Positions 4,744 through 21,017 of a stretch of DNA of 64,000 nucleotides are shown here, piece by piece (within the stretch, counting starts at the first letter, position 1; every line of letters begins with the position of its first letter). A program made the position numbers and the translations under genes. Location: positions 480,001 to 544,000 of the forward strand of contig CBDAOY010000006.1 in NCBI GenBank assembly GCA_965198225.1. Direction: 5' to 3'. A model generated the notes under the pieces. It did no database searches, was not told where the DNA came from, and saw only the letters and a list, made by a program, of their open reading frames with translations. The stretch is from Terriglobia bacterium (GTDB taxonomy: Bacteria > Acidobacteriota > Terriglobia > 20CM-2-55-15).

Positions 4744-4806
4744 CTCATGGGCTCTCCAGCCCCGCCCACCCGGCGTTGGCTCAGTCATCCTCATCCTTTC
4801 GAAGCT
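4744..4806. repeat. Degenerate direct copy of 4979-5053 (junction of NTase stop and small-ORF start)
   Basis: CCGGCGTTGGCTCAGTCATCCxCATCCTTTCGAAGCT and CCAGCCCCGC present at both sites. Confidence 0.85.
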
Positions 4807-4840
4807 TTCGAAGAGGCCCGACGTTGTCCAGCAATGCGGC

Positions 4841-5035
4841 CTATTCGTTCTGATCCCAGTCCCCGGTCGGGTGCGTCGGCCCCCCTCCGCGAACGTGTCG
4901 GACGAATCGATGCGCCTCCTCCAGCCAGGCGAGTTTCTCGGATAGAGGAAGTTGGGCCAGGCGAGCTAGCTGGCGCCGCTCATGGTCTTTCCAGCCCCGC
5001 TCCCAGACCCGCTCATCCGGCGTTGGCTCAGTCAT
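4841..5035 (-). CDS. Small helical protein, probable partner of the upstream nucleotidyltransferase
   Basis: ATG overlaps the NTase end (GATGACTGA); MTEPTPDERVWERGWKDHERRQLARLAQLPLSEKLAWLEEA. Confidence 0.7.
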   Translation of the reverse strand: MTEPTPDERVWERGWKDHERRQLARLAQLPLSEKLAWLEEAHRFVRHVRGGGPTHPTGDWDQNE

Positions 5036-5534
5036 CCACATCCTTTCGAAGCTGAATCAGACTCTGAACATCCTCCCGATCACGAGGTCGGCCGGCCCGT
5101 GTTTTCATCTCGATCAAGTCCTCCAGGCTGCAGAACACCGCCTCCACACCCGGCGCCGCCGGCTGTCTCACAGCTTTCTCATAGGCCTCTCTAAAATCGA
5201 TGGGCGGTTCCAGAAACAGGGCAACCTCGGTGGCTCGATGTGCGTCGGAGAAAAGCGAAAACACGGTCATGTCCTTCTCCTGCGCCCACTGTCGACGCGC
5301 CGAGCGGTCGACGAAGTCGTCGAACTCCACCGGCGCGCGGGGACGGTAACCGAGCCCCTTCAGTGCCGCGACCGCGCGCGTGAGGTTTGCTGTGTCCATC
5401 GACAGCATCAGATCGACGTCGGCGGTGAACCGGACGTATCCGTGCGCAACGACCGCGAGCCCGCCAACGATCAGGTATTGGACCTGGTTCTCGTTCAGCG
5501 CCGCTACAATTGCCGCCAGGCTTCCGCGCTCCAT
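5028..5534 (-). CDS. Nucleotidyltransferase, DUF6036/AbiEii-like
   Basis: YLIVGGLAVVAHGYVRFTADVDL and LEDLIEMKTRAGRPRDREDV motifs. Confidence 0.85.
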   Translation of the reverse strand: MERGSLAAIVAALNENQVQYLIVGGLAVVAHGYVRFTADVDLMLSMDTANLTRAVAALKGLGYRPRAPVEFDDFVDRSARRQWAQEKDMTVFSLFSDAHRATEVALFLEPPIDFREAYEKAVRQPAAPGVEAVFCSLEDLIEMKTRAGRPRDREDVQSLIQLRKDVDD

Positions 5535-5567
5535 GCCGGTGCGATTATAGCGTGAGCGGCACGCGGC

Positions 5568-7655
5568 CTAGCGGAACTGATTCCGCTGCTCACCTCCAGA
5601 GTCGTCCGAAGTTGCGAGCGGTTCGTGGGTGCCCCACTTCTCGAACCACTTCCTCAGGTAGAGCTGGGTCCGGAGGAAGTTCGAAGGCCGGGAAGTCGTG
5701 CCATGCCACTCTTCCTGGAATCGGATCATGACGGTAGGTACGCCTACGTACTGCAGTGCCTGGTAGAACTCTTCGGTCTGGCCCATCGGGGTGCGCAGGT
5801 CGTTCTCACCCGTCATGAGCATGGTCGGCGTCGTAACGTTCTCCACGTAGAAGATCGATGAGCGATCGATCCATTCCGCGGCGTCTTCCCAGAACGGCTT
5901 CTCGAAGGTACGCAGGTAGCTGATGGCGTCGGATGTTCCCATGGCAGACATCCAGTTGACGATGGGGCAGTTCGCCGAGGCGGCCCGGAAGCGATCGGTA
6001 TTGCCGACGATGTAGCTCGTCAGGATGCCGCCACCGGAACATCCGTAAACAAACAGGTTGTCTTCGTCGACGTAGCCGGTCGCGAGTGCCTCGTCGACGC
6101 CGCGCATGAGGTCCTGCATGTCGATACCGGGATAGTCGTGGTTGATAGCGTTTGCAAAGGCCGTCCCGAAGCCGGTGCTCCCCCGGGGATTGGTGTAAAG
6201 GACCACGTAATCGTTGGCGGCATGCTCCTGAAACGCGAAGTTGAAGCCGCCGTTGTACATCCCGTGCGGGCCGCCGTGGATCGCCAGCATCATGGGATAG
6301 GCGCGGTTCGGATCGAAGCTGGGGGGCTTCACGATCCAGCCCTGGACGCGGAAAGGATCCGAGTCATACCAGATTTCTTCCACCTCGCCAAGAGTGACGC
6401 CGTGGAGGACGTCGGCGTTCACCTCGGTCAGGCGGGTGACGTCGCTCGGACTCGCCAGGTCGAACCGGTAGATGTCGCCGGGCTCGTGCGCGCTCGAGAT
6501 CGTGCCGACCGCAATACCGCCGCCGGAAAACGACGATAGCGAAAGGAGCTGCTTACCTTCGGTGAGCTGCGTGACGCCCCCATCGATCGATACGAAGTGA
6601 AGGCCACGATACCCCTCGCGCGAAACACTGAAGTAAAGGCCGCTTCCGTCCGGTGCCCACTCAAGCCCGCGCGACTGGCGGTCGTAGTCGCCGGAGATCG
6701 CACGCGACCCGGACCCGTCGCGGTTCATCACATAGATTTTCTGATTCCGGTAGGTATCCTGGTGGGCCTCGATACCGGTGTAAGCGATCAGGCGCCCGTC
6801 GGCTGACGGCACCGGTCCGTTGTCGGGGCCGCGCCGGTCCGTAAGCTGAGTTACCTCCCCCGAAGCCACCGCGACCGCATAGATCTCCGATTCCTGCCAG
6901 TGGTCCGGTCGGTCCCAGTCCTCGGCGCGATAGGACGTGAAGTAGATCTCGGTTCCGTCGGGGCTCCACGCAATGTTCGAGTGGTTCCAATCGCCGTCGG
7001 TGAGCTGCCGGGCGGTTCCGCCTTCGGCCGGCACCACGAAGACGTGCGTCCATCCCGTATCGATGTAACCCCGGCGGTCGCGCTTGTAGCCGGCCCGTTC
7101 GACGATCTTGGGTTCTTCCACCCATTTCGCCCCGTCCGGTCGCGAGGGAAGTCCGACTCCGGAGAAATCCGCCTTGTCGTTCACTCGAGCGGCGAAAGCC
7201 ACCGAATTACCATCGGGAGACCAGCGCGCCCCCGATGGCCCGTTCTCCAGCCGGGTGATCTGAGTCACGGATCCTTCATCGTCCATCCAACGGACGAAGA
7301 TCTGTGAACCCTCCGGTTCCCCCTCTTTCGTGAAGAGGATTCTAGTACCGTCGGGAGACCAGCGCGCTCCACTACCGTCGATCAGTTGCCGATTCCTGGT
7401 GCCGTCGCCGTTCATGATCCATAGCGACGATTCGCGACGGTCGTTGACCTTGTCCACCCACTGGCGCGTGTAGATGATCCGGGCCCCATCGGGTGAGATC
7501 TGAGGATCTGAAACGGACTCCATGTCCAGGTACTTCTCGAGCGAGAGCCGCTGATCCTGAGCGCTGACTTCCGAGGCCAGGAGAAAAGCGCCGACAGAAA
7601 CCGCAAGCGCAAGGCAACCAAACCGACAGGCTCGGCGACCGTTCGTCCGTTTCAT
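5568..7655 (-). CDS. S9 family peptidase (acylaminoacyl/dipeptidyl aminopeptidase) with PD40 beta-propeller, exported
   Basis: Signal peptide; WSPDG repeats; IHGGPH; GCSGGG nucleophile; GENDLR and EWHG triad residues. Confidence 0.93.
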   Translation of the reverse strand: MKRTNGRRACRFGCLALAVSVGAFLLASEVSAQDQRLSLEKYLDMESVSDPQISPDGARIIYTRQWVDKVNDRRESSLWIMNGDGTRNRQLIDGSGARWSPDGTRILFTKEGEPEGSQIFVRWMDDEGSVTQITRLENGPSGARWSPDGNSVAFAARVNDKADFSGVGLPSRPDGAKWVEEPKIVERAGYKRDRRGYIDTGWTHVFVVPAEGGTARQLTDGDWNHSNIAWSPDGTEIYFTSYRAEDWDRPDHWQESEIYAVAVASGEVTQLTDRRGPDNGPVPSADGRLIAYTGIEAHQDTYRNQKIYVMNRDGSGSRAISGDYDRQSRGLEWAPDGSGLYFSVSREGYRGLHFVSIDGGVTQLTEGKQLLSLSSFSGGGIAVGTISSAHEPGDIYRFDLASPSDVTRLTEVNADVLHGVTLGEVEEIWYDSDPFRVQGWIVKPPSFDPNRAYPMMLAIHGGPHGMYNGGFNFAFQEHAANDYVVLYTNPRGSTGFGTAFANAINHDYPGIDMQDLMRGVDEALATGYVDEDNLFVYGCSGGGILTSYIVGNTDRFRAASANCPIVNWMSAMGTSDAISYLRTFEKPFWEDAAEWIDRSSIFYVENVTTPTMLMTGENDLRTPMGQTEEFYQALQYVGVPTVMIRFQEEWHGTTSRPSNFLRTQLYLRKWFEKWGTHEPLATSDDSGGEQRNQFR

Positions 7656-7913
7656 TTCAAACCCCCTTTCAGCGAATGATGTGTGCCACGCGGCGCGTCT
7701 AGCTCGACGTAGTGCTGGAAGAGCTGGCGCCGGACCCAGCCTCCACGGATTCTACTCTCGCCGGGATGCCGGAGTCACCAAAACCCAGGGGCAGGAAGAA
7801 CCAGAGACCTACTGCCTGAGAGGAATCAGACTTGTTCCTACGTGACAGAGCGGTCGGCAGCAGACGTCAAGCACTCCCGATTCAGACGAGCAGTCTCAGT
7901 TCCATCGAAATCC

Positions 7914-7942
7914 TTGACAGGTCGGCGGTGGAAGGGTAAAAC
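7914..7942 (+). promoter_or_regulatory. Putative sigma-70 promoter for the 7991 ORF
   Basis: TTGACA (7914-7919), 17 bp spacer, TAAAAC (7937-7942). Confidence 0.5.
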
Positions 7943-7990
7943 CGGCTGAACCAGAGGCACGAAGCTGAACCCTCGCAGCCAGTCGATAAG

Positions 7991-8455
7991 ATGGAGCGAT
8001 ATCGATCGATCATCATCAAGAGCGTCACCTGGACATGCGGTGTCGGGTCAGTTTATTTTCTGTACCAGATTGTCGCAGTCGATGTGAGCACGACTCCCGA
8101 ACCCTTCTGGGAGCTTTTCGTCGACAGCGAAGCAGACAACGCGAGAGCCGCATTAACGTACATCCTGGTGGGCATTTTCCTTGGCCTTTTTGCGCTCCTC
8201 ATGGTGGCGCTGGCAGCAAAGTTTGCCTATAACATGGTTCACGGCGCCCTCAGCAAGATCGTCCCGCACGATTGGCGGTCACTCATCCTTCCAGTTGTTC
8301 TCCTGGCCACACTCTTCACTCTCCAGGGCTGGAAGGGGCCCATCAAACACGCGGCGATTTCGGCCTACCTGCAGGTAGACGAGATCATCGCTGTCGCCGG
8401 CGGCTATGACCCCGGGGTGACGGGCGAAGTGCCGGAGACTCCAGATAATCCTTAG
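7991..8455 (+). CDS. Hypothetical membrane protein (about 3 TM segments)
   Basis: 154-aa ORF with hydrophobic stretches and an upstream promoter-like motif. Confidence 0.65.
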   Translation: MERYRSIIIKSVTWTCGVGSVYFLYQIVAVDVSTTPEPFWELFVDSEADNARAALTYILVGIFLGLFALLMVALAAKFAYNMVHGALSKIVPHDWRSLILPVVLLATLFTLQGWKGPIKHAAISAYLQVDEIIAVAGGYDPGVTGEVPETPDNP

Positions 8456-8803
8456 GCGCGAGCGAGGAGTTCGAGCGCCACGATCACACCCGAGTCGACT
8501 TCCGGCGGGTGCGAAAGAGCGCTACGCTCAGTTTTCCTGCGCTTTTCCTGCAAGCTTCTCTGTCAGTGAGGTCCCAAAAGACTCCGCCGACAGCACCGAC
8601 CGCACTCCGTCCGGCGCAACGAGCATTTCGTCGCTCATGTGGCTTCCACACTGGGAGCATTGAGGCCGCCGGAAATGCTAATTCACATGCGATACCGCGG
8701 CTGCATCTCTTCCATAGCACGGTTTTTGAACTGTCAGCCACGCAACACCAGGATCTCGGAATTGAGATTGGTCAGTCCCTGCACTCCCTCGATGGCCCGC
8801 ACT

Positions 8804-9769
8804 TCAAAAGACATGGGTGTAGATCATCGTCGTCCGAACGTCGCGGTGGCCGAGCAGTTCCTGGACCGTTCGTATGTCGTAGCCATCTTCGAGAAGGTGC
8901 GTCGCGAACGAGTGACGGAATGTGTGGCAACTGGCCGGTTTTGTGATTCCTGCCTTCCTCACGGCAGTCTGAACCGCTCGCCCGACAGCGGATTCGTGCA
9001 GGTGATGGCGGCGTTTTCGCCCCGTTTCCTTATGAAAGTAGATTCTGGTGGCAGGGAAAACCCATTGCCATGCCCACTCTGTTCCGGCGTTCGGGTATTT
9101 CCGGGCAAGTGCATAAGGTAATTCGACCCAACCGGCGCCTCTGCGAAGATCCTGTCTGTGCAGGTCCCGTTTCTTCAGCACATGAACCGAAAGAGGAGCA
9201 CGCACGAGGGACGGCAGGACGGTGACTCGATCCTTGTTGCCTTTGCCGCTCCGTACCGTAATCCGGCTGTCGCCGAACTCGATGTCCTTCACTCTCAATC
9301 TCAGGCATTCCAGCAGTCTGAGGCCAGAACCGTACAACAGAGTGGCAACCAGCCAAGGGACTCCGTCCAAAACCGCGAGAATCGATCGGACCTCTTCGCG
9401 TGTGAGAACGACCGGCAACCGCGCGGGACGCTTCGCTCTGGTGATCCGATTCAGCCAGGGCAACTCCATTCGCAAAACGTCGCGATAGAGAAAGAGGATT
9501 GCGGCCAGAGCTTGGTTCTGGGTGGACGCGCTGACCTGATGTCTGACGGCGAGCGATGACAGGAAGGCCGTTGCTTCCTCTTCGCCCATTTCAGAGGGAT
9601 GTCGCTTCCCATGGTAGATGATGAACCGGCGAATCCACCGGAGGTATGCTTTCTCGGTGCTGCGGCTGTAGTGCCGCATGCGGATCGCCGCGCGAACGGC
9701 CTCCATGAGTCTCGGCTTCTTGACGGGCTTGGCGAAATCTTCGCCGTCGCCCGATGGGATGTGACGCAC
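8804..9769 (-). CDS. intI: Integron integrase (tyrosine recombinase), C-terminal tail possibly frameshifted
   Basis: [39 protein letters not shown], IntI-specific insertion [65 protein letters not shown]. Confidence 0.95.
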
Positions 9770-9800: not shown

Positions 9801-11295
9801 CCCCTATATTTCACGGATAGGACCAGAAAAGGCCGCCCTGTTTGGCATAAAGCGTTTGACGAGAAACGTTTAAAAACCCAAACGGAGACGGCCCTTATGA
9901 GAACAGAGTGTAAGCAAGCCACGTTCGAATTTCACGGACTTTTTCAACGGAAAGTGAAGGCGCGATTCGACGGCGGAAAGATCACCTCCGACGCGGGTGT
10001 TCTGCTGTTGAGGGAAGTCGAGAAGCGGACGGGTTTGATCGCCGGACTGGAGCAGTGTTTTACCGATCACCGGGACCCGAGGTTGATCGAACACAGCGTG
10101 AAGGAGTTGTTGGGCCAGCGGATTTATGGACTGTGCTTGGGCTATGAGGACCTGAACGACCACGACCAGCTACGGACCGATCCGATGCTGGCCGTGGCGG
10201 TGGAGAAGGCCGATCCACTGGGAAAAAACCGGCGGCAGGCCGGAGACCGGGGAAAGGCGTTGGCAGGCAAGTGCACGCTGAACCGGTTGGAACTGACCGC
10301 AGAGCAGGTCGATGGCCAGGAGCGGTACAAGAAGATCGCCATGGATGGCGACAAGATCGACCGGTGGATGGTCGACGCGTTTATCGCGGCCCACGAATCG
10401 GAGCCCTCTGAGATCGTTCTGGACCTGGATGCCACCGACGATACGATCCATGGCAACCAGGAAGGACGGTTCTTTCACGGCTACTACGGCAACTACTGCT
10501 ACCTGCCGTTGTACATCTTCTCGGGAGAACATCTGCTGTGCGCCCGGCTCCGGCGTTCCAACATTGACGGGGCCGACGGAGCGGTGGATGAGTTAGAGCG
10601 CATCGTCGGTCAGATCCGACAGGTGTGGCCCACAGTATCGATCATCATCCGGGCCGACTCGGGCTTTTGCAGGGATGAACTGCTCGCCTGGTGTGAATCC
10701 CATCCGGTCGATTATGTGATCGGGTTGGCCAAGAACAGTCGTCTCAAGCAAGAAATCGCTGAAGAAATGGTTCAGGCGGAAGCGGAGTTTAACGCCACCG
10801 GGAAACCGGCGCGGGTGTTTAAGGATTTCCAGTACCGGACTCTAAACAGCTGGACCCGCGCGCGACGCGTCGTCGGCAAGGCGGAGTTCCTGGACAAGGG
10901 CGCCAATCCCCGATTATCGTGTGCCGCCGGAACGCTTCCAAGCCCGCGCTTTGTATGAGGACTTCTACTGCGCGCGGGGCGACATGGAGAACCGTATCAA
11001 GGAACAGCAGTTGGACCTATTTGCGGACCGGACCAGCGCGGCGACCATGCGCGCCAATCAGCTCCGGCTCTATCTCTCCTCAGCTGCGTACATGCTCATG
11101 CATGCCCTGCGACGCCTCGGGCTCAAACGCGATGGCCCATGCCCAGTGCGGGACCATCCGCTGAAGCTTCTCAAAACGGCCCGAATCCGCCTGACGGTCC
11201 GCAACGTCTGGATCTCGATGTCGGAGGGAAACCTTCGCCCTTATCATGCGGACAGGATTCCGCTTCGTTGCTGACGACACGCGAAAAACTCATCA
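9801..11295 (+). mobile_element. IS1380-family insertion sequence, right end degraded
   Basis: Begins CCCCTATATTTCAC right after the repeat; encodes an IS1380 transposase; no matching right IR seen. Confidence 0.85.
9897..11274 (+). pseudogene. IS1380-family DDE transposase, frameshifted near 10920 and degenerate at the 3' end
   Basis: FDGGKITSDAG, GYEDLNDHD, LDLDATDD..HGNQEGRFFHGYY, IIRADSGF in ORF 9897-10958; YCARGDMENRIKEQQLDLFADRTS continues in ORF 10921-11274. Confidence 0.9.
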
Positions 11296-11525
11296 TTCGC
11301 CGTCGCCCGATGGGATGACTGACGCACCGGGAGTTTGACCGAACAGGAAGGGCACTAAAACGATACTCCGGTCCGATGGACATCCGCAAGGGGACGCGGG
11401 ACCTTGAGAGACGTCATCCCCCATCTAATTCGCTTGAAATCCACTCCCGGCGGCCCTATGGTCGGTTCAATTCACTCACGGCAAAAGCGAGAGACCAGAC
11501 AGTTCACCTCAAGCAGGAGGACATC

Positions 11526-12194
11526 ATGGCCAGCAAGACGGATGGGACAGGACGTGGCGGCGACGAGCGCGGTATTTCACGACGCGAACTGCTGAAGCGT
11601 GCCGGGTTTGTCGGAGCGGCGGTGGCCTTTCCCGTTCCGGCGCTCACCCCGGGAGCAGCATCGGAGCAGGAGCGGGAACCGTTCGAGACGCTTACTGCCG
11701 CTGAGTCCGACACGCTGGAAGCGATGGTGGCGCGACTGATCCCCACAGACGACAATGGACCGGGGGCCGCCGAAGCCCGTGCGGCGCACTACATCGATCG
11801 CGCGCTGACCGGCCCCCTCGCGTCTTCACGCGACGCTTACTCGGCAGGTCTCGAGGCGGTCAACACTTACGCCCGAACCTCGAGGGGCGCTCCGTTCCGA
11901 GAGCTACAGGCCGAGGACCAGGATGCGGTCCTGACCGACATGGAGACCGGCGTCGCCACCGGCTTTAGGCCCGACTCGTCGCAATTCTTCGACCTGCTTC
12001 GGACACACACCATCCAGGGCACGTTCTGCGATCCCTACTATGGGGGAAACGCAAATTTCGTCGGCTGGGATCTCATCGACTACCCGGGCGTGAGAACCGC
12101 AGTATCCGCGGATCAGCAGCGCCTGGATACTGACCTCGAGCCGAACCACAGATCGGCGTACGACTACCGAATGTTTACCAAGAGGGGCAGGTGA
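11526..12194 (+). CDS. Gluconate 2-dehydrogenase subunit 3 (gamma) family protein, Tat-exported
   Basis: AGGAGG RBS; SRRELLK Tat motif; RLIPTDDNGPGA, YIDRAL, FCDPYYGGN..GWDLIDYPG. Confidence 0.9.
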   Translation: MASKTDGTGRGGDERGISRRELLKRAGFVGAAVAFPVPALTPGAASEQEREPFETLTAAESDTLEAMVARLIPTDDNGPGAAEARAAHYIDRALTGPLASSRDAYSAGLEAVNTYARTSRGAPFRELQAEDQDAVLTDMETGVATGFRPDSSQFFDLLRTHTIQGTFCDPYYGGNANFVGWDLIDYPGVRTAVSADQQRLDTDLEPNHRSAYDYRMFTKRGR

Positions 12195-12197
12195 GCC

Positions 12198-13904
12198 ATG
12201 GCCGTCACACAGGAAAAAACAGACGTCGTCATCGTCGGACTCGGGGCCGTCGGAGGTGTGGCAGCCCTTCCGCTCACGCAGGCCGGGCTGGATGTGATCG
12301 GTCTCGAGGCGGGGACCTGGCTCAGCACGCGCGATTTCGCTCCGGACGAACTACGGAACAACGTGCGCGGGTGGCCTCAGTCGGCACAGAAGGCGAATCG
12401 TGAGATACCCACTCACAGGCGGAGCGCCGCGGCGCCGTACTCGCCCCGCCAATCGGTGCATCCGATGATGAACGCAGTCGGTGGCACCTCGCTCCACTAC
12501 TGGGGGCAGAGCTGGCGCCTCAACCCGTGGGACTTCAAGGTCGTCAGCGAAACGACCCGGCGCTACGGGGCTTCGCGAATCCCCGCCGGCTCGACCGTAG
12601 AGGACTGGCCGTTCGGACTGGAGGAGCTCGAGCCCTACTACGACAAGGCGGAGTATGAGGTCGGAGTTTCCGGTCAGGCCGGAAACCTCAACGGGACGAT
12701 CGACCGGCGCGGCAACATTTTCGAGGGGTCGCGCAGCCGTGAATACCCCATGCCTCCCCTCCGGAGTACGGGGTTCACCGAGGGGATGGGGGCGGCGGCC
12801 CGGAGGCTTGGATGGGATCCGTTCCCGGGGCCAGCGGCGATCAACAGTCAGAGATATCAGAACCGATCCGGGTGTGTGTACCACGGGTTCTGTAGCCGCG
12901 GCGGCTGCCACGTGGATGCGAAGAGTTCGACGGCGGTGTCCACGATCCCGAAGGCAATAGAAACAGGGCGTCTGACGGTCGTCACACAGGCGCACACGAC
13001 CACGATCGAGGTCGACGCCGACGGTCGCGCCACCGGTGTGAACTACATCAAGAACGGTGAGGAATACTTCCAGCCGGCGGATGTCGTATTGCTCGCCAGC
13101 TACGTATACGAGAACGTGCGCATGCTCCTGCTCTCGAAGTCGGACCCGTATCCGAACGGCCTGGGCAACAACCGCGGCCAGGTCGGTCGGCACTACCTCA
13201 GCCACAACACCGGCGCAGGCGTAACCGCCCTGTTTCCGTTCGATCTGAACAACTGGTACGGCACTCCCTCACAGGGTGTCGCCATCGACAACTGGGCCGA
13301 CGACAACTTCGACCACGGCGATCTCGACTTCATCGGCGGCGGAAACCTCTGGGTCTACACCGAGCGACGGCCGATAACGGCCGCGAGCATGAGCACGTTC
13401 GGCAGGGCGCCACGGTGGGGCTCCGCCTGGAAGGCCTTCATCAAGGAAAACGCCGACCGTTGGACGCGCACCTATATCCAGAAGACGACGCTGCCGTACG
13501 AAGACAACTACCTGGACCTGGATCCGACGGTGAAGGACCCTCTCGGCTTTCCCGTGTGCCGGATCACAGCAGACTTCAAGGAAAACGAAAAGAAGGTCGC
13601 GGTATTCACTCAGGACAAGATGGTCGAGTGGTTCATGGCGGCAGGCGCGATCGACACGCTGCGAGGCGGGATCGGCACGATGGGGCCGACGACCCACGCT
13701 TACGGCGGTACCCGCATGGGAGACAACCCGGACACGAACGTCGTCGACCGGTGGGGCTTCTCTCACGAGGCGCCGAACCTGGGCGTCCTTGGCGCCTCGC
13801 TCATGGGCACGAGCGGCGCCCGCAACCCCACGCTGACAGCCCAGGCCCTGGCGTGGCGAACGGCCGAGCACCTGGCCGAGAACTGGAAGACCATCGCCGA
13901 ATGA
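12198..13904 (+). CDS. GMC-family FAD oxidoreductase (gluconate 2-dehydrogenase alpha-like)
   Basis: DVVIVGLGAVGG dinucleotide fold; VGGTSLHY; CVYHGFCSRGGC; THAYGGTRMG; NPTLTAQALA. Confidence 0.92.
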   Translation: MAVTQEKTDVVIVGLGAVGGVAALPLTQAGLDVIGLEAGTWLSTRDFAPDELRNNVRGWPQSAQKANREIPTHRRSAAAPYSPRQSVHPMMNAVGGTSLHYWGQSWRLNPWDFKVVSETTRRYGASRIPAGSTVEDWPFGLEELEPYYDKAEYEVGVSGQAGNLNGTIDRRGNIFEGSRSREYPMPPLRSTGFTEGMGAAARRLGWDPFPGPAAINSQRYQNRSGCVYHGFCSRGGCHVDAKSSTAVSTIPKAIETGRLTVVTQAHTTTIEVDADGRATGVNYIKNGEEYFQPADVVLLASYVYENVRMLLLSKSDPYPNGLGNNRGQVGRHYLSHNTGAGVTALFPFDLNNWYGTPSQGVAIDNWADDNFDHGDLDFIGGGNLWVYTERRPITAASMSTFGRAPRWGSAWKAFIKENADRWTRTYIQKTTLPYEDNYLDLDPTVKDPLGFPVCRITADFKENEKKVAVFTQDKMVEWFMAAGAIDTLRGGIGTMGPTTHAYGGTRMGDNPDTNVVDRWGFSHEAPNLGVLGASLMGTSGARNPTLTAQALAWRTAEHLAENWKTIAE

Positions 13905-13966: not shown

Positions 13967-15013
13967 GTGAGGACCATAATTCGCGACATGTTTACGGGTT
14001 CCTCATGCGTCTACCGCCCTGCTCGACTTCCGGTCTGGCTCTTTTTCCTCGCGGCGATGCTTCTGCTCGTCAGTTGCGGAGAGAATTCCTCAGAGAGCGG
14101 CGTCATCGAGCTTCAGATCGGAACCGTCACCGCACCCGGATCGCTGGTTTCCGCAAGTTCCGAGGAGTTTGCCCGGCGGATCAACGAACGCCTCGAGGGC
14201 CGCGTCCGCGTGGAGTTCTTTGGATCCAGCCAACTGGGTAACGACGAAGTTCTGGTCCAGAAACTGAAGCTGGGAACGCTCGACTTCGCCGTCCCGTCGA
14301 CGATCATGTCTTCGCTGGTCGACGAATTCGGGTTGTTCGAGATGCCGTACCTGGTTCGGGATCGGGATCACATGCGACGCATCGGCGAGGAGATCTTCTG
14401 GCCGTCGCTGGCCCCCGCGGCCGAGGTAGCAGGTTACCGGGTCCTCGGGCTATGGGAGAACGGGTTCCGGCATATCACCAACAACACGCGCCCCATCTAC
14501 ACGCCCGAGGATCTCAGCGGGATCAAGCTGCGAACGCCGCGAGGGGAGTGGCGGTTCAAGCTGTTCCGGGTGTTTGGAGCCAACCCGACGCCGATGCCGC
14601 TGGCGGAGGTGTTCGTTGCCCTTCAGACCGGCGTGATCGACGGTCAGGAGAATCCGTTCGCACAGCTGGCAAGCCTCAAGTTCCACGAGGTCCAGGACTA
14701 CCTGTCGCTGACCGGTCATGTCTACAGCCCGTCGTATCTCCTGACAGGGGTGAACCGCTGGAACCGCCTGCCCGTCGATATCCGCGGGGTGATCGAGCAG
14801 ACGGCGAGAGAGATGCAGGATTTCGTCTACTCCGAGGCCGAACGTATGGACCGCGAGCTCCTGGAGGAGCTGCGGGGATCCGGTATCCAGATCAATGAGG
14901 CCGACCGCGACCGATTCCTCGAGGCCAGCGGTCCGATATACGAAGAATTCGGGAACGCGGTGTCGGGCGGGGCCGACTTGATCCAGACGGCGATCCGACT
15001 CACCAACCCGTGA
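13967..15013 (+). CDS. dctP: TRAP transporter substrate-binding protein (DctP family), lipoprotein-like
   Basis: LLVSC lipobox; SSQLG; WENGFRHIT; GIKLR; ALQTGVIDGQENP; start codon uncertain. Confidence 0.9.
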   Translation: MRTIIRDMFTGSSCVYRPARLPVWLFFLAAMLLLVSCGENSSESGVIELQIGTVTAPGSLVSASSEEFARRINERLEGRVRVEFFGSSQLGNDEVLVQKLKLGTLDFAVPSTIMSSLVDEFGLFEMPYLVRDRDHMRRIGEEIFWPSLAPAAEVAGYRVLGLWENGFRHITNNTRPIYTPEDLSGIKLRTPRGEWRFKLFRVFGANPTPMPLAEVFVALQTGVIDGQENPFAQLASLKFHEVQDYLSLTGHVYSPSYLLTGVNRWNRLPVDIRGVIEQTAREMQDFVYSEAERMDRELLEELRGSGIQINEADRDRFLEASGPIYEEFGNAVSGGADLIQTAIRLTNP

Positions 15014-15088
15014 GAGCCACGGCTGCCAGGCCGCATCGGACACCGCACCGAGGTGGTATACTGACCGCCAAAGAGGAGAATTCCGCCA

Positions 15089-15937
15089 GTGCAGATCGAC
15101 CACAAAAAATGTGTGGCCTGTGCCAACTGCGTCCCCGTGTGCCCGATGGGTGCGATCCATGTGGACGCCACGATCAACCGCGCCACCATCGACTATGACG
15201 AGTGCGTCGAGTGTGGGACCTGCTACCGCGGGATGAGCCAGGAACACCTGAACCCGACCATGGTTCGGGCCGTTCGGGGACTGGCCAAGATGTTCCGATT
15301 CCGTTTCGATCCGGAGCCCGACGTTTGCCCGACCGGCGCGTTCGTGATGGAAGATCTGGAATGGCCCCGTATCGCCCGTCGGGTGTTCAGCGATCCTCTC
15401 GTCGAACACAAGTCCACGGGAATCACGGGCCGCGGCACGGAAGAGGTCAAGACGAACGACGTGGCCCACCGCGTCGGTGTCGGCGAAGTGGGATACGTGA
15501 TCGAGTTTGGGCGGCCCGGAACCGGCGTCCGATTCCACCAGATACAGTCGATGACGATGGCGCTCGCCGGCATCAGAGTCACCTTCGAACCGAACAACCC
15601 GATCACGCATCTGATGACCGACAAAGGCGTCGGCACGCTCAAGGAAGATCTGCTGAACGAAAAGATCCTGTCGGCGATCGTCGAAATCAAGACGCCGCTG
15701 GCGGAGGTGAAGAGAGTGCTCGACACCGTCATGGACGTGTCGAAGCAGATCGATACCGTCATCGCGATCGGAGTCTCGACGCGCTGTGACGATGCGGGAG
15801 AGGATCCGCTGCTGGCATCGTTGCTCGACGAGCTGGGCTACTCGTTCGAGCGCTCCAAGACCAACATGGGCCTGGGCCGCGTCACGAATGTCGCCGAGGA
15901 GGGCACGGGTGACGAACACCTTGCATCGGTACGGTAA
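15089..15937 (+). CDS. 2x[4Fe-4S] ferredoxin-domain protein with an uncharacterised C-terminal domain
   Basis: GAGGAG RBS; CVACANCVPVCP and CVECGTC...VCPTGA; GRGTEEVKTNDV motif. Confidence 0.85.
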   Translation: MQIDHKKCVACANCVPVCPMGAIHVDATINRATIDYDECVECGTCYRGMSQEHLNPTMVRAVRGLAKMFRFRFDPEPDVCPTGAFVMEDLEWPRIARRVFSDPLVEHKSTGITGRGTEEVKTNDVAHRVGVGEVGYVIEFGRPGTGVRFHQIQSMTMALAGIRVTFEPNNPITHLMTDKGVGTLKEDLLNEKILSAIVEIKTPLAEVKRVLDTVMDVSKQIDTVIAIGVSTRCDDAGEDPLLASLLDELGYSFERSKTNMGLGRVTNVAEEGTGDEHLASVR

Positions 15938-16580
15938 GGCCGAGGCTTTCCGCGACGACTACATCATCTTCGCCATACCATCGAAGGGCAAGAATGATCA
16001 GGGCGCGCTCGATAAGCTCAGGACCTTCCTCAGGATCTGTGTCCGGCATCAGCCTTCCAACATCGGCGCCTCGGGGAAGAGCAGCTTTCGCCCCTCGCCC
16101 AACCTCAACCCTTCCGTCCACTGGAAGCGGGACCTGCAGCCGGATTTCGACGTTGTCATCGACGGCGTGAAACGGGCCGGAACCGTAGGAGCCGTGTTTG
16201 ATTCGCGCGACAAGGCCGTGGCCTGTCTCCGCGAGGTCATTGACGCCGACCTTGGCTTGTCAGTCAACATCAGCACGTCAGTGGAAGGCGCGAAGGATGT
16301 CGGCCAGGCATGCGGGGTCCCGCGGCACAGCGTCGAGTACTCGCTGGGTTTCACCGATCCGCACGACCACCTGCCCCGAAGCCGGATTCTCGAACTCGCC
16401 ACGATGTGCGGCCATGGCATGATCTCGTTCCACCTGGTCCAGAAGATGGTCGACATGGTTCGGGAGGGCCGTCGTACACCGGCGCAGGCCGTGGCGACGC
16501 TGACCCGCTTCTGCCCTTGCGGCGTCTACAATCCGTCCCGCGCTTTGCGGCTTTTGGAAGAGAGTCATACGCAGCAGTAG
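15909..16580 (+). CDS. Uncharacterised Cys/His-motif protein, coupled to the ferredoxin
   Basis: GAGGAGGG RBS then GTG inside the upstream gene; HSVEYSLG, TMCGHG, RFCPCGVYNP motifs. Confidence 0.8.
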   Translation: MTNTLHRYGKAEAFRDDYIIFAIPSKGKNDQGALDKLRTFLRICVRHQPSNIGASGKSSFRPSPNLNPSVHWKRDLQPDFDVVIDGVKRAGTVGAVFDSRDKAVACLREVIDADLGLSVNISTSVEGAKDVGQACGVPRHSVEYSLGFTDPHDHLPRSRILELATMCGHGMISFHLVQKMVDMVREGRRTPAQAVATLTRFCPCGVYNPSRALRLLEESHTQQ

Positions 16581-16645: not shown

Positions 16646-17239
16646 TACACGACGACTGAAGCTGAAAACGTGGTCAACCATCCTGTCCGGCGTCGGATCG
16701 TGATGCTTCTCATGATGGTAGGCAACGTCGGAATCGTCACAACGGTTGCTTCACTTCTGATGTCCTCCACCGGAGCTGCGGGGCCGGCTGCGTGGTTCCC
16801 GCGCTTGACGACGTTGTTGGCGGGACTCGGGACGCTCTACCTCGCAACGAAGATCCCGGTGGTCGACCGGGGCATCCATCGTTTCATCGAGTTCCTGCTC
16901 CGGAGGTTCAATTCGCTCCATCCCCGAGACTATGCTCGGCTGGTTTCATTGCCCGGCGATTACGGGGTAACGGAACTGCAAGTTCAGGCAGAGGATTGGC
17001 TGGCAAAACGAACGCTGGGTGACGCCGATCTCCACCGAGAAGGACTTCTCGTGCTGGGCACACCGGGTTGGCGGTGACTACGAGGGATTGCCCAGGCTGC
17101 CACGCGGATCTTTCCACACGATCGCTTGATCATCTACGGCCGCTCCGGCCAGCTGGGAGACTTGGATTGCCGATGCGCAGGAGAGGAGGGCGACAGGCGA
17201 CATGCGGTGGCCTGCGGCCGGACCGGAGAATCAAGTTGA
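16646..17239 (+). pseudogene. TrkA-C (RCK_C) domain membrane protein remnant
   Basis: TTTEAENVVNHPVRRRIVMLLMMVGNVG without a 5' end; WLAKRTLGDADLHREGLLVLG; stop at 17075-17077 within a frameshifted patch, then DRLIIYGR. Confidence 0.75.
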
Positions 17240-17510: not shown

Positions 17511-19460
17511 GTGACTATGAAACGCCACTCCAGAGCAGGCTACGGCCGGTCTGTGACGCTGTGCGGCGTCTGGCTGCTGGTGTCCGCCTCCATGCTCGTC
17601 GGCTTCCAGGCTTCAGCGCCGAAACAAGCTGATTCCTCTTACGACGTCATTCTGTTTGCGAAAGATGTCATGGTCCCGATGCGGGACGGTGTCCGACTGG
17701 CGACCGACGTCTATCGTCCTGCCCGCAACGGTGAGCCGGTTGAAGAAAAACTCCCAATCCTCCTGCAGCGGACGCCGTACAACAAGGAAGGCCGCGGGCT
17801 CGTCGAGAGTGCCCGATACTTCGTCCACCAGGGCTACGTGGTCGCGCTGCAGGACATCCGCGGTCGGTACAAATCCGAGGGGAGCTTCAGCAAGTACGCC
17901 TACGTCACCGCGCCCGACGGGTACGACACTCTAGGGTGGCTGGGAGCGCTTGCCTACGCCGATGGCCAGGTCGGCATGTGGGGCACATCCTACGGCGCAC
18001 ACACCCAGGCCGATGCCGCCAAGACGAATCCACCCAACCTCCGGACCGTCCTGCTCAACTTCGGAGGCCTCCACAACGGATGGGAGATCAAGGTCCGCAA
18101 CCACGGTGCCTTCGAGCTGGGACAGCAACTCGGCTGGGCTTTCGGCCAGGTCGCGGCGGGATCAGAGGATCCAGTGGTCCTCGAGATGATGGAAGCCGAG
18201 CCAGTAGAGAAATGGTTTGCCGCTATGCCGCTCCGCAAAGGGCTCAATCCGCTTTCGGTGGCGCCCGAGTTCGAGAGCTACGTCCTGGAGATGCTGACGC
18301 ACGGGGACTATGACGAATACTGGCGGGGTTTAGGTGTCAACTGGAGCGAGCACTATGCCGGAACTGCCGACATCCCGATGCTGCACGTCGGCGGCTGGTA
18401 CGACACCTATGCCGGGAGCACGTTCAAGAATTACGCGGGCCTCGCAAAGGCCAAGCAATCCCCGATACGACTGCTCGTAGGCCCCTGGGTCCACGGCGGC
18501 AATGCTCGCTCTAACGCGGGCGACGTCGAGTTCGGACCCGAAGCGGCAATCAACGATTTCGCCCGCGAGTTTCATTTGCGCTGGTTCGACCACTACTTGA
18601 AAGCCGCCCCGACAGGTGTCGGCGAGTGGCCGGCGATCAAGCTCTTCGTTATGGGAACAGGGGACGGCCACAAGGACGCGAACGGCAGGCTCTACCACGG
18701 TGGGTACTGGCGCGAGGAAACCTCATGGCCCCTGCCCGATACCGAGTTCGTAAAGTATTACTTCCACGCCGACGGAAGCCTGAATGCGGCGGGGCCGGTC
18801 GCGGATGTTTCGCCGACAACGTATCCTTACGATCCCGACGACCCCGTGCCGACAATCGGCGGGTCGTTTTCCGGCGCCCTGAAGAGGGGCGCCTACGACC
18901 AGCGCGAAAGAGAATTCAAGAGCCTCGGAGGTGGATCCGAGAACGGGTTCTACGGATCGAAACCGCCGTATTTACCGCTCAAGACCCGGTCCGATGTCGT
19001 GGTCTTTCAGACCGAACCGCTGGCAGAGGACGTCGAAGTGGTCGGCCCGATCCGCGTGACACTTTTCGCCGCGTCGACCGCGCTGGACACGGATTTCACG
19101 GCCAAGCTGATCGATGTCTACCCACCCAGCCGGGACTTCCCGTCCGGATTCGACATGAACCTCACCGACGGCATCGTTCGGGCCCGTTACCGGAATTCTC
19201 CCGAACGCCAGGAGCTCATGACGCCCGGTCAGATCTACGAGTTCGTTATCGAGCCGTTCCCGACAGGGAACGTCTTCAAGAAAGGACACCGGATCAGGAT
19301 CGACATCTCGAGCAGCAACTTTCCCCGCTTCGACGTGAACCCGAATACCGGGGAGCCGCTGGGCAAGCACAGGCGCATGATTGTGGCCGACAACTCGATC
19401 TATCACGATGCCGCTCACCCTTCCCACATCGTGCTTCCGATCGTGCCGGCTGGACGGTGA
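17511..19460 (+). CDS. CocE/NonD family hydrolase (S15-like)
   Basis: VPMRDGVRLATDVYRP, RTPY, QDIRGRYKSEG, GTSYGA nucleophile, GGWYD, GPWVH, SSSNFPRFDVNPNTG. Confidence 0.93.
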   Translation: MTMKRHSRAGYGRSVTLCGVWLLVSASMLVGFQASAPKQADSSYDVILFAKDVMVPMRDGVRLATDVYRPARNGEPVEEKLPILLQRTPYNKEGRGLVESARYFVHQGYVVALQDIRGRYKSEGSFSKYAYVTAPDGYDTLGWLGALAYADGQVGMWGTSYGAHTQADAAKTNPPNLRTVLLNFGGLHNGWEIKVRNHGAFELGQQLGWAFGQVAAGSEDPVVLEMMEAEPVEKWFAAMPLRKGLNPLSVAPEFESYVLEMLTHGDYDEYWRGLGVNWSEHYAGTADIPMLHVGGWYDTYAGSTFKNYAGLAKAKQSPIRLLVGPWVHGGNARSNAGDVEFGPEAAINDFAREFHLRWFDHYLKAAPTGVGEWPAIKLFVMGTGDGHKDANGRLYHGGYWREETSWPLPDTEFVKYYFHADGSLNAAGPVADVSPTTYPYDPDDPVPTIGGSFSGALKRGAYDQREREFKSLGGGSENGFYGSKPPYLPLKTRSDVVVFQTEPLAEDVEVVGPIRVTLFAASTALDTDFTAKLIDVYPPSRDFPSGFDMNLTDGIVRARYRNSPERQELMTPGQIYEFVIEPFPTGNVFKKGHRIRIDISSSNFPRFDVNPNTGEPLGKHRRMIVADNSIYHDAAHPSHIVLPIVPAGR

Positions 19461-19535: not shown

Positions 19536-21017
19536 ATGATTTTACGTATCGTTTCGGTGATCCTTCTCCTGTCGTTGACGGGAACGCTGTCCGCCCAGCA
19601 GGCGGAACGCTACGACTACCTGGAGCCGACCGACCGACTCATCACGGCCGGAGTACAGGCGCTGATGATCTGCAACGGTCTTTTCGTTTCCAACCGCACG
19701 CTGGACCAGATCTATGAACAGGAGCTGAAACTGGACCGGATGCCCATCCTGCCTCCGCGACAGGTCCGGATTGATCGAGAAAGAAAGGCCGTGGTCGTGG
19801 GCGGCAAGGGCAGCAACGCGCTACCTGCGATGCGCGCCGCCTACCGAACCGGATTGGGTTGCATCGTCATGGCGCCCGACCAGACGCTCGAGGACATCGA
19901 CACGTTGCCGAAGCTCGAAATGCCTCCGCTGGCCGGGGACCCGACGACGATTCCATGGCCGGACGGGGACCTCGTAGAAGAAAAGCCGTTGCCGGCTACC
20001 ATCGACCGACGCGCGATCGAAGCGGCCGCGGACTGGGCCTTCGAGCGTCCCCGGTCGCAGATCACGTTGAGCCTCCTCATCGTGCACAAGGGTGACGTCA
20101 TCCTCGAGCGATATGCGTCGGGCGTCGATATGACGACTCGAACCCGAACCTGGTCGACGGCGAAGAGCATCGCCAGCACGCTCATCGGCATGATGGTCGG
20201 GCGAGGCGAGCTGACGCTCGACGGCCCCCTCCCGTACTCGGACTGGGGATCGTCACTCAACGATCGCGAAACCGCGGGCAACGATCCTCGGAGGAAGATC
20301 ACGCTGCGGGATGTTCTCCACATGTCCAGTGGCCTGTACCCGGTCGACAACAGCAGCTGGAAGGTTCCCTCCCACGTCAGCTATTTCGGCGGCGCGAGCT
20401 CGGTTCGAGGAGCGTTGGACCGCGGAGTAGTGCGAGAACCCGGAACGGTGTGGGACTACGAGAACTACGACACCCTCCTGGCGATCTACGCGCTCAAGAC
20501 CGCCATCGGGGATCCGCAGAAGTACCTCGAGTTCCCACGAAACGAGTTGTTCGACAAGATCGGCATGCGCAACACCCTGCCCGGGGTCGACCGCTTCGGG
20601 GATTTCATCCTCAGCAGCCAGGTGTACACGAATGCCAGGGATCTGGCGCGTCTGGGCCTGCTGTACCTGAACGAAGGGGTTTGGAACGGCGAACGGATTC
20701 TGCCCGAAAGCTGGATCCGGTTCGTCCGCACGCCGGCACCTTCGACCGCGACCAGCGGCCGGTTCTACGGCGGACAGTGGTGGCTCGTTCCCGATAACCG
20801 GACCGAAGTTCCTCAGGACGCATACACCACTTCGGGCAACAGGGGCCAGTACACGATCGTCATCCCGTCCTACGACCTGGTCATCGTCCGGCGAGGGTTG
20901 GACTGGGGTTCACCCGGATTCCCTCGATGGGACCTGGTTGTCGAAGTGTTGAAGGCGTTCCCAGAGCGTGAAGGCGGAGACAAACTGAGCGTCCCATCGC
21001 GCAATCGTCGCCAATAG
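19536..21017 (+). CDS. Serine hydrolase, beta-lactamase class C/AmpC fold, exported
   Basis: WSTAKS (SxxK), LHMSSG, YEN, ARDLARLG, GNRGQ. Confidence 0.88.
   Translation: MILRIVSVILLLSLTGTLSAQQAERYDYLEPTDRLITAGVQALMICNGLFVSNRTLDQIYEQELKLDRMPILPPRQVRIDRERKAVVVGGKGSNALPAMRAAYRTGLGCIVMAPDQTLEDIDTLPKLEMPPLAGDPTTIPWPDGDLVEEKPLPATIDRRAIEAAADWAFERPRSQITLSLLIVHKGDVILERYASGVDMTTRTRTWSTAKSIASTLIGMMVGRGELTLDGPLPYSDWGSSLNDRETAGNDPRRKITLRDVLHMSSGLYPVDNSSWKVPSHVSYFGGASSVRGALDRGVVREPGTVWDYENYDTLLAIYALKTAIGDPQKYLEFPRNELFDKIGMRNTLPGVDRFGDFILSSQVYTNARDLARLGLLYLNEGVWNGERILPESWIRFVRTPAPSTATSGRFYGGQWWLVPDNRTEVPQDAYTTSGNRGQYTIVIPSYDLVIVRRGLDWGSPGFPRWDLVVEVLKAFPEREGGDKLSVPSRNRRQ

Follow-up and report, generated by a model that had tools for sequence, protein, structure and literature searches.

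A widespread gene pair for a putative heterodimeric iron-sulfur oxidoreductase in a Terriglobia bacterium

The window analysed here, a stretch of 64,000 nucleotides from a Terriglobia bacterium (assembly GCA_965198225.1, contig CBDAOY010000006.1, positions 480,001 to 544,000), contains two overlapping genes, here called A and B, whose products very likely form an obligate heterodimeric iron-sulfur (Fe-S) redox protein. We suggest that this protein is an oxidoreductase that acts on an imported carboxylic acid, a proposal to which, with its fuller mechanism included, we assign a probability of about 0.55. Modular Fe-S oxidoreductases with a ferredoxin-type entry domain are a known kind of protein; for the catalytic parts of A and B we found neither a described family nor a solved fold.

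A preliminary description of the window had reported two overlapping genes, each with a strong ribosome-binding site, and this agrees with the coordinates, the 29-nucleotide overlap and the GAGGAG-type sites read from the sequence (Table 1). Sequence and profile searches divide the product of gene A into a ferredoxin domain and a domain without family assignment. The first cluster motif of the ferredoxin domain is C8-x2-C11-x2-C14-x3-C18-P. The second, C39-x2-C42-x2-C45, is split, as its fourth cysteine (C80-P) is displaced by 34 residues. The preliminary description was accurate in all these points, having listed the CxxCxxCxxxCP motif, the second motif split by about 34 amino acids, and a domain of about 190 amino acids with a motif of its own. 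Residues 1-47 score above the Pfam cut-offs for Fer4 (2.6e-10, 40.1 bits, cut-off 21.1), Fer4_7 (33.8 bits, cut-off 27) and Fer4_10 (32.3 bits, cut-off 25.5), which places this part of A among the bacterial 2x[4Fe-4S] ferredoxin domains of the Pfam Fer4 clan. None of the eight cluster cysteines varies in an alignment of 56 sequences, some of them homologues that are only 35-48% identical. The same alignment contains no conserved cysteine in the C-terminal domain, where the invariant residues are R94, R97, S101, G114-R-G-T117, E119, K121, N123, G141-R142-P143, N170-P171, E191, S195, E199, K257 and G261-L-G263. Their polar and charged character would be expected of a domain that binds an anionic ligand. 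The C-terminal region (residues 85-282) has 5558 homologues, which are named only "ferredoxin", "4Fe-4S binding protein" or "hypothetical", and a PDB sequence search with A returned ferredoxin domains only.

The start of gene B is supported by the N-terminus TNTLHR, which is invariant in 46 homologues. In the AlphaFold2 model of B (mean predicted local distance difference test, pLDDT, of 81.5), the N-terminal half forms an alpha/beta sandwich, while the C-terminal part is helical and bears the cysteine and histidine motifs. The three motifs HSVEYSLG, TMCGHG and CPCGVYNP, which had been singled out beforehand as resembling metal ligands, are all present. Among 35 homologues at 27-47% identity, the invariant residues of B are H6, R7, D17, C167, G168, H169, C202, C204 and N208, so that the four candidate ligands C167, H169, C202 and C204 are retained in 35 of 35 sequences. 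The HSVEYSLG loop is disordered in the model of B alone, with a pLDDT below 50 for residues 142-153.

Searches with B gave no match at E <= 1 in Pfam and NCBIfam and nothing below E = 1.9 among the PDB sequences. Fold searches of the AlphaFold2 models of A and B with Foldseek and VIA-align, against about 48,000 PDB representatives, returned only generic alpha/beta sandwiches, and the ESM Atlas contained only clusters that were either without name or labelled ferredoxin. Among the hundreds of homologues listed, no name occurs beyond "ferredoxin", "4Fe-4S binding protein" and "hypothetical protein", and no description of such a pair was found in open-access papers or bioRxiv. The earlier failure to assign either protein to a characterised enzyme is thus borne out by the Pfam, NCBIfam, PDB sequence and fold searches, which gave no family beyond the ferredoxin domain. 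An internal duplication was considered as the origin of A and B and rejected, as they are not homologous to each other (hhalign probability of 0.9%). The alpha/beta sandwich folds with which the pair was compared are those of ACT, PII and MTH1187-like proteins, and the weak fold matches of both A and B include thiamine-binding MTH1187-like proteins. Five loci (L129, L132, L138, L148 and L158) contain A and B followed by thiamine salvage genes (a ThiM-like hydroxyethylthiazole kinase and ThiE) and also a gene for an unassigned protein of 285 amino acids; the co-occurrence of thiamine genes with MTH1187-like matches may be a coincidence.

The two genes are closely coupled. In 79 of 80 genome loci, gene A immediately precedes gene B in the same orientation; the remaining locus starts 6 nucleotides before B. 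These loci derive from metagenome-assembled genomes that carry the labels Terriglobia or Bryobacterales, Bacteroidota (Cyclobacteriaceae and others) and Gemmatimonadota, and their B proteins are 61-89% identical to B of the window. Another 80 metagenome loci were found with the distant B homologue P0269 as the single query. Nine of them have less than 300 nucleotides upstream of B, and in 68 of the 71 loci with at least 350 nucleotides an A-like gene precedes B. Moreover, P0123 and P0124 are fusions of A and B. The neighbourhood analysis and the fusions are therefore consistent with the two-subunit system that the preliminary description had envisaged.

The complex of A and B was predicted three times in the presence of two 4Fe-4S ligands. 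Every run scored 0.89, whereas the best of three controls scored 0.00. Of 80 solved complexes used for calibration, 58 attained a score this high, as against 2 of 110 mismatched pairs; this calibration is only rough here because our own alignments and ligands were used. The runs agree in at least 96% of the contacts, with a partner pLDDT of at least 88, and the predicted interface comprises about 305 contacts. It is formed by residues 15-19, 42-54, 73-79, 118-126, 142-145, 222-233 and 251-268 of A and by residues 2-7, 137-152, 168-176 and 200-204 of B. The contacts with the lowest predicted error include A259-B140 and A228/229-B144, and the HSVEYSLG loop becomes a strand that pairs with residues 227-231 of A. 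Residues 168-176 of B touch residues 15-19 of A, between the cluster ligands C14 and C18. Therefore, almost every invariant residue of both chains is placed in or beside the interface. Both the heterodimer and the convergence of the invariant residues at its interface are, in this respect, predictions of a model. Complex prediction had been put forward earlier as a way to find a metal site shared by the two proteins; an interface was indeed predicted (0.89 versus 0.00), and the position of the motifs in it suggests a putative shared site.

That the pair is a redox protein is supported by the 2x[4Fe-4S] domain and by the NAD(P)H flavoprotein modules that are inserted in A or encoded next to it. 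In P0126 and P0127 (707-708 amino acids), a GltD-like NAD(P)H/FAD module (Pyr_redox_2 and Fer4_20) is located within the loop that splits the second cluster motif of A, and the C-terminal domain of A comes after this module. A gene for a PadH/AorC-like flavoprotein, identified by an NCBIfam PadH match of 2.2e-74 that is below the cut-off of the family, is located directly upstream of A in 16 of the 80 metagenome loci (13 of the 44 that are at least 4 kb long). A tungsten-type aldehyde:ferredoxin oxidoreductase (AOR) is encoded directly downstream of B in seven metagenome loci. The metagenome loci also contain genes for Fer4_11 proteins (nine loci), proteins similar to CO dehydrogenase (CODH-like, ten loci), an AcsV-like reductive activase (three loci) and a YdiJ-like FAD oxidase with a CCG domain (four loci), and P0268 is a fusion of B with a Fer4_11 domain. 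An exchange of low-potential electrons between A-B and such partners would account for these arrangements.

The same variety of partners, which also includes an FMN-dependent dehydrogenase with a c-type cytochrome and a CODH-like protein with a CooF-like one, and the Fer4_11 fusion in P0268 would suit a protein that only transfers electrons. According to this explanation, which we consider unlikely, A-B is a hub that connects dehydrogenases (AOR, FMN- or FAD-dependent hydroxy-acid dehydrogenases and CODH-like enzymes) to NAD(P)H flavoproteins or the respiratory chain and converts no substrate. However, the buried interface contains about 30 invariant polar residues (R, E, K, N, S, T, H and D), which is rare for simple electron carriers, and many loci have no dehydrogenase partner but only transporters and hydrolases.

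The gene order in some of the anaerobe-type loci is itself conserved. In L094, L105, L112 and L123, a Fer4_11 protein, a CODH-like protein and a PadH-like flavoprotein are encoded upstream of A, followed by A and B, and in L094, L105 and L112 an AcsV-like corrinoid/Fe-S reductive activase is encoded after the pair. Only the N-terminal 65 residues of the CODH-like protein match the catalytic subunit of CO dehydrogenase.

In the oxidoreductase that we propose, electrons would enter or leave through the two clusters of A, the outside partner being an NAD(P)H flavoprotein, a ferredoxin or a dehydrogenase such as AOR. They would pass to a third metal or Fe-S site, putatively held by C167, H169, C202 and C204 of B and placed against the ligand loop of the clusters in A. 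A small carboxylic acid, imported by tripartite ATP-independent periplasmic (TRAP), tripartite tricarboxylate (TTT) or GntP transporters, may be reduced, or oxidised in the reverse direction, in a pocket between the subunits. The walls of this pocket would consist of the GRGTEEVKTND and GRPG motifs of A and of H6, R7, D17 and the RHSxE loop (R139-H140-S141-x-E143) of B. Three cysteines and one histidine are the ligand pattern of special-iron clusters or Cys3His clusters, and a two-electron reduction at the site in B is therefore favoured.

It is possible, albeit doubtful, that A-B represents a new class of metalloenzyme, with an active site that spans the interface and surrounds a cofactor hitherto undescribed for this fold. 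The C-G-H and C-x-C-G-x-[FY]-N motifs of B would then hold a Cys3His Fe-S cluster with a reactive iron, or a nickel site, which the two [4Fe-4S] clusters would feed for the reduction of a carboxylic acid at low potential. The CPCGVYNP motif is reminiscent of the nickel hook in Ni-superoxide dismutase, and in acetyl-CoA synthase nickel is bound by C-x-C motifs. The CODH-like protein and the AcsV-like, ATP-dependent reductive activase beside the pair in some anaerobes fit a site that needs reductive activation.

Hints at the nature of the substrate come from the neighbouring genes. Upstream of A in the window is a gene for a TRAP solute-binding protein of the DctP family (Table 1), whose best PDB sequence match is 4nq8 (1e-52), followed by 4p47, the sialic-acid-binding SiaP and other DctP chains. 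Several of the nearest chains presumably bind hydroxy-monocarboxylates. A DctP homologue is encoded within 8 kb of the pair in 20 of the 80 genome loci, and at least one TRAP component in 23. The other recurrent neighbours in these loci are an Amidohydro_1 protein (36 loci, mostly adjacent and divergent), an FMN-dependent 2-hydroxy-acid dehydrogenase (FMN_dh, 12), sulfatases (11), a HIBADH-like dehydrogenase (9), MR_MLE (7), GntP (6), FAH (6), a KGSA-dehydrogenase-like Aldedh (5) and an HpcH aldolase (4). In Bacteroidota, the order is DctMQP, amidohydrolase and HIBADH-like dehydrogenase, divergent from A-B. The recurrent amidohydrolase is most similar to the L-arginine carboxypeptidase Cc2672 (3mtw, 1.6e-26) and to prolidases. 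In the 44 anaerobe-type metagenome loci of at least 4 kb, GntR-FCD regulators are encoded in 12 and TctC in 7. This context points to small carboxylic acids, possibly derived from an N-acyl or peptide-like precursor. Hence, from the earlier proposal of a heterodimeric redox enzyme for an organic or sugar acid delivered by the adjacent TRAP protein, the obligate pair and the redox function are supported, while the evidence for the substrate is circumstantial.

The genes of sugar-acid routes among these neighbours (MR_MLE, FAH, KGSA-dehydrogenase-like Aldedh, HpcH aldolase and GntP), together with the three invariant cysteines of B, could also be taken to indicate a non-redox Fe-S hydro-lyase, i.e. 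a dehydratase for a hydroxy acid. The three cysteines of B would hold an aconitase-type cluster with a free iron, and the role of the ferredoxin domain in A would be a structural or regulatory one. We find this very improbable, since both ferredoxin clusters are fully conserved in the 56 sequences and a dehydratase has no need of the NAD(P)H flavoprotein modules that are fused or adjacent to the pair. Furthermore, neither A nor B matches the Pfam or NCBIfam profiles of aconitase, serine dehydratase, IlvD/Edd or tartrate dehydratase at E <= 1.

The amidohydrolase and the HIBADH-like dehydrogenase bring to mind yet another pathway, in which A-B would be a split distant relative or a functional analogue of 6-hydroxynicotinate reductase (EC 1.3.7.1). 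In such a system, an unsaturated cyclic amide carboxylate would be reduced at its C=C bond with ferredoxin-level electrons. Ring opening by the amidohydrolase would then yield an aldehyde for reduction by the HIBADH-like dehydrogenase. The enzyme from Eubacterium barkeri reportedly contains two [4Fe-4S] clusters, one [2Fe-2S] cluster and a covalently bound flavin, and later enzymes of its pathway are said to be an enamidase, which is an amidohydrolase, and a dehydrogenase of the HIBADH family. The trio of an Fe-S reductase, an amidohydrolase (36 of 80 loci) and a HIBADH-like dehydrogenase (9 of 80 loci) parallels this route, and the reductive route is reported to occur in aerobes too (PMC3511419). 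However, the neighbouring amidohydrolase resembles Cc2672 and prolidases, and its match to enamidase (2vun) reaches only 5.3e-6 over about 100 residues. Likewise, the best PDB match of the HIBADH-like neighbour is 3w6u (1.9e-28), and 2-(hydroxymethyl)glutarate dehydrogenase (3cky) is the 13th of 14 matches. None of the recurrent neighbour clusters scanned matches a molybdenum hydroxylase, and no clustering of A-B with nicotinate hydroxylase and enamidase genes was seen among them. Only five proteins of 495-2000 amino acids matched A, none of which is named 6-hydroxynicotinate reductase, and this name is also absent from the listed homologues of A and B. A tblastn search of 72,556 plasmids gave no match for B or for the C-terminal domain of A. 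A role of this kind has a low probability in our view.

Several observations weigh against an oxidoreductase of imported carboxylic acids. The DctP gene in the window is an orphan with no DctQ or DctM gene adjoining, and the DctM genes of the host genome are found elsewhere, either on different contigs or at a distance of about 425 kb on the same one (C7, C9, C5 and C6:55010). No amidohydrolase or flavoprotein partner is encoded beside the pair in the window, where the GltD-like module is also absent, this module being confined to the rare fusions P0126 and P0127. From one lineage to another the neighbours change (amidohydrolase, FMN_dh, sulfatases, or CODH-like and AOR proteins), so that no single pathway can be recognised. 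There is no gene A upstream of B in L118 and L157, and only a short ferredoxin is encoded before B in L127. The AlphaFold2 model of A alone is poor (mean pLDDT of 68.4), and the score of the complex is the confidence of the model itself rather than a measurement. Finally, the candidate third site could instead bind zinc or be purely structural.

The pair is widespread and not a rare oddity. There are 2788 homologues of B at E <= 1e-3 in a collection clustered at 90% identity, and a profile of B identifies 764 clusters at 50% identity (E <= 1e-3), or 490 at E <= 1e-10, mostly of 200-230 amino acids. Judged by record titles and automatic cluster labels, the family is present in Acidobacteriota, Bacteroidota, Gemmatimonadota, Thermodesulfobacteriota, Bacillota and other phyla, the distant members being labelled, for example, Desulfobacterales or Oscillospiraceae. 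The B proteins of Acidobacteriota, Bacteroidota and Gemmatimonadota are 61-91% identical, indicating strong constraint. Gene B is present in 19 of 23 other genomes of the family to which the window belongs, in 1 of 16 genomes from other families of the class, and in 1 of 300 other genomes of a phylum-wide sample (E <= 1e-10). Therefore, it appears to serve an accessory function that is kept within lineages but has a patchy spread. In L133, L150 and L152 (at about 4785-8615 in each), two different A-B pairs flank a GntR-FCD regulator in a back-to-back arrangement; the identity of each pair to A and B of the window is only 32-48%, and paralogous pairs thus coexist in one genome.

Seven short contigs from RNA libraries, with at least 99% identity, map to DctP, A, the A/B overlap (15841-16090) and B. 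They come from four libraries of one study (X1-X4) and provide a weak hint of expression, as DNA carry-over is possible. Scans for terminators and promoters around the genes gave counts no higher than in shuffled sequence.

If A-B is an enzyme, the assignment of its reaction would annotate thousands of genes and probably close a gap in the catabolism of an imported carboxylic acid, with a role in soil and host-associated aerobes as well as in anaerobes. The predicted interface offers a concrete and testable picture of where the chemistry would take place.

Upstream of DctP, the window contains genes for a gluconate 2-dehydrogenase subunit 3-like protein and a GMC oxidoreductase (Table 1). The order of these two genes, DctP and A-B is repeated in the two nearest relatives (L002 and L003). 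The subunit 3-like protein has an arginine-rich N-terminus resembling a twin-arginine translocation (Tat) signal (GISRRELLKRAGF...), which suggests that it may form a periplasmic sugar or sugar-acid dehydrogenase with the GMC oxidoreductase. Directly upstream of this block are genes for a phage-type integrase and a DDE transposase, of which a short open reading frame (ORF) may be the shifted end; the integrase and the transposase fit an accessory, possibly transferred region. Downstream of B, a small ORF of 127 amino acids as translated has a hydrophobic start and no Pfam match and may be a fragment. It is followed by genes for a hydrolase of the S15 X-Pro dipeptidyl-peptidase family and a serine hydrolase of the beta-lactamase family, both of which are also present in L002 and L003. 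A 489-amino-acid ORF antisense to DctP and gene A was dismissed as a shadow frame of G+C-rich DNA; in 15 loci, naive calling of the longest ORF chose the shadow frame over the real genes. Recurrent neighbours without a Pfam or NCBIfam family at other loci have 394 amino acids (L078:2417-3601), 279 amino acids (L041:10063-10902) and 645 amino acids (L064:10152-12089), and could be further parts of the same pathway.

Table 1. Features of the A-B pair and of its surroundings, in positions of the window
Feature	Position	Strand	Remarks
Gene A, Fe-S subunit	15089..15937	+	282 aa; GTG start 15089, TAA 15935-15937; read from sequence
GAGGAG, Shine-Dalgarno-like	15073..15078	+	10 nt 5' of the GTG of gene A; read from sequence
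Split 2x[4Fe-4S] ferredoxin domain	15089..15343	+	A residues 1-85
C-terminal domain of A	15344..15934	+	A residues 86-282, about 200 aa; without Pfam or NCBIfam family
GRGTEEVKTNDV	15428-15463	+	A residues 114-125, within the C-terminal domain
Gene B, partner subunit	15909..16580	+	223 aa; GTG start 15909, TAG 16578-16580; overlaps A by 29 nt
GAGGAGGG, Shine-Dalgarno-like	15896..15903	+	5 nt 5' of the GTG of gene B; lies within the 3' end of gene A; read from sequence
HSVEYSLG	16326..16349	+	B residues 140-147; H140 nearly invariant
TMCGHG	16401..16418	+	B residues 165-170; C167, G168, H169 invariant; candidate metal or cluster ligand loop
CPCGVYNP	16512..16535	+	B residues 202-209; C202, C204, N208 invariant; candidate metal or cluster ligands
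DctP-family TRAP solute-binding protein	13967..15013	+	75 nt upstream of gene A; Pfam DctP 6.4e-83
Gluconate 2-dehydrogenase subunit 3-like protein	11376-12194	+	Pfam Gluconate_2-dh3 9.3e-32
GMC oxidoreductase	12198-13904	+	directly upstream of DctP; Pfam GMC_oxred_C 6e-14
Phage-type integrase	8804-9769	-	
DDE transposase	9897-10958	+	
ORF, possible shifted transposase end	10921-11274		
Small ORF downstream of B	16694-17077	+	
S15 X-Pro dipeptidyl-peptidase family hydrolase	17511-19460		
Beta-lactamase-family serine hydrolase	19536-21017		
Antisense shadow ORF (rejected)	14450-15919	-	

Some known Fe-S systems are set apart from the pair by their domains. A BFD-like [2Fe-2S] domain (Fer2_BFD) has the motif order C-x-C ... 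C-x2-C, unlike the C-G-H ... C-x-C order of B, which has no Pfam match to it at E <= 1; the fold search covered B as a whole. LUD or CCG domains of the LutABC/CCG type have no Pfam match in A or B, CCG being found only in the neighbouring YdiJ-like gene. Enzymes of the GltD type, such as dihydropyrimidine dehydrogenase (PreT/PreA), the small subunit of glutamate synthase and NfnB, are comparable in that P0126 and P0127 have a GltD-like module before the catalytic domain of A, which implies an electron flow from NAD(P)H through FAD and the [4Fe-4S] clusters to the active site. However, the GltD-coupled flavoenzymes have an FMN TIM-barrel catalytic domain, whereas A and B have neither this nor any other known catalytic domain, and no Pfam match to DHO_dh, Glu_synthase or Pyr_redox_2 was found in either protein at E <= 1.

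The tungsten aldehyde oxidoreductase AorABC and the phenylglyoxylate dehydrogenase PadEFGHI are modular Fe-S electron chains that act on carboxylic acids and aldehydes. Genes for AOR, Fer4_11 and PadH/AorC-like proteins adjoin A-B in anaerobe-type loci, although A and B are homologous to these systems only in the ferredoxin domain, and the lineage of the window has no such genes nearby. IspH, IspG and 4-hydroxybutyryl-CoA dehydratase use a [4Fe-4S] cluster with three cysteine ligands or a Cys3His pattern for reductive or dehydrating chemistry. They differ from the pair in sequence and fold, and the cluster in B is putative, but the three invariant cysteines and the invariant histidine of B and the dedicated electron-transfer domain of A are similar. 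The 6-hydroxynicotinate reductase system of E. barkeri differs in that A-B consists of two genes, that the neighbouring amidohydrolase is not similar to enamidase, and that nicotinate hydroxylase genes do not recur nearby. The pair resembles this enzyme, as reported, in its two ferredoxin-type [4Fe-4S] clusters, in a further Fe-S site, for which B provides a candidate, in a total length of 505 amino acids that falls within its size range, and in its amidohydrolase and HIBADH-family neighbours.

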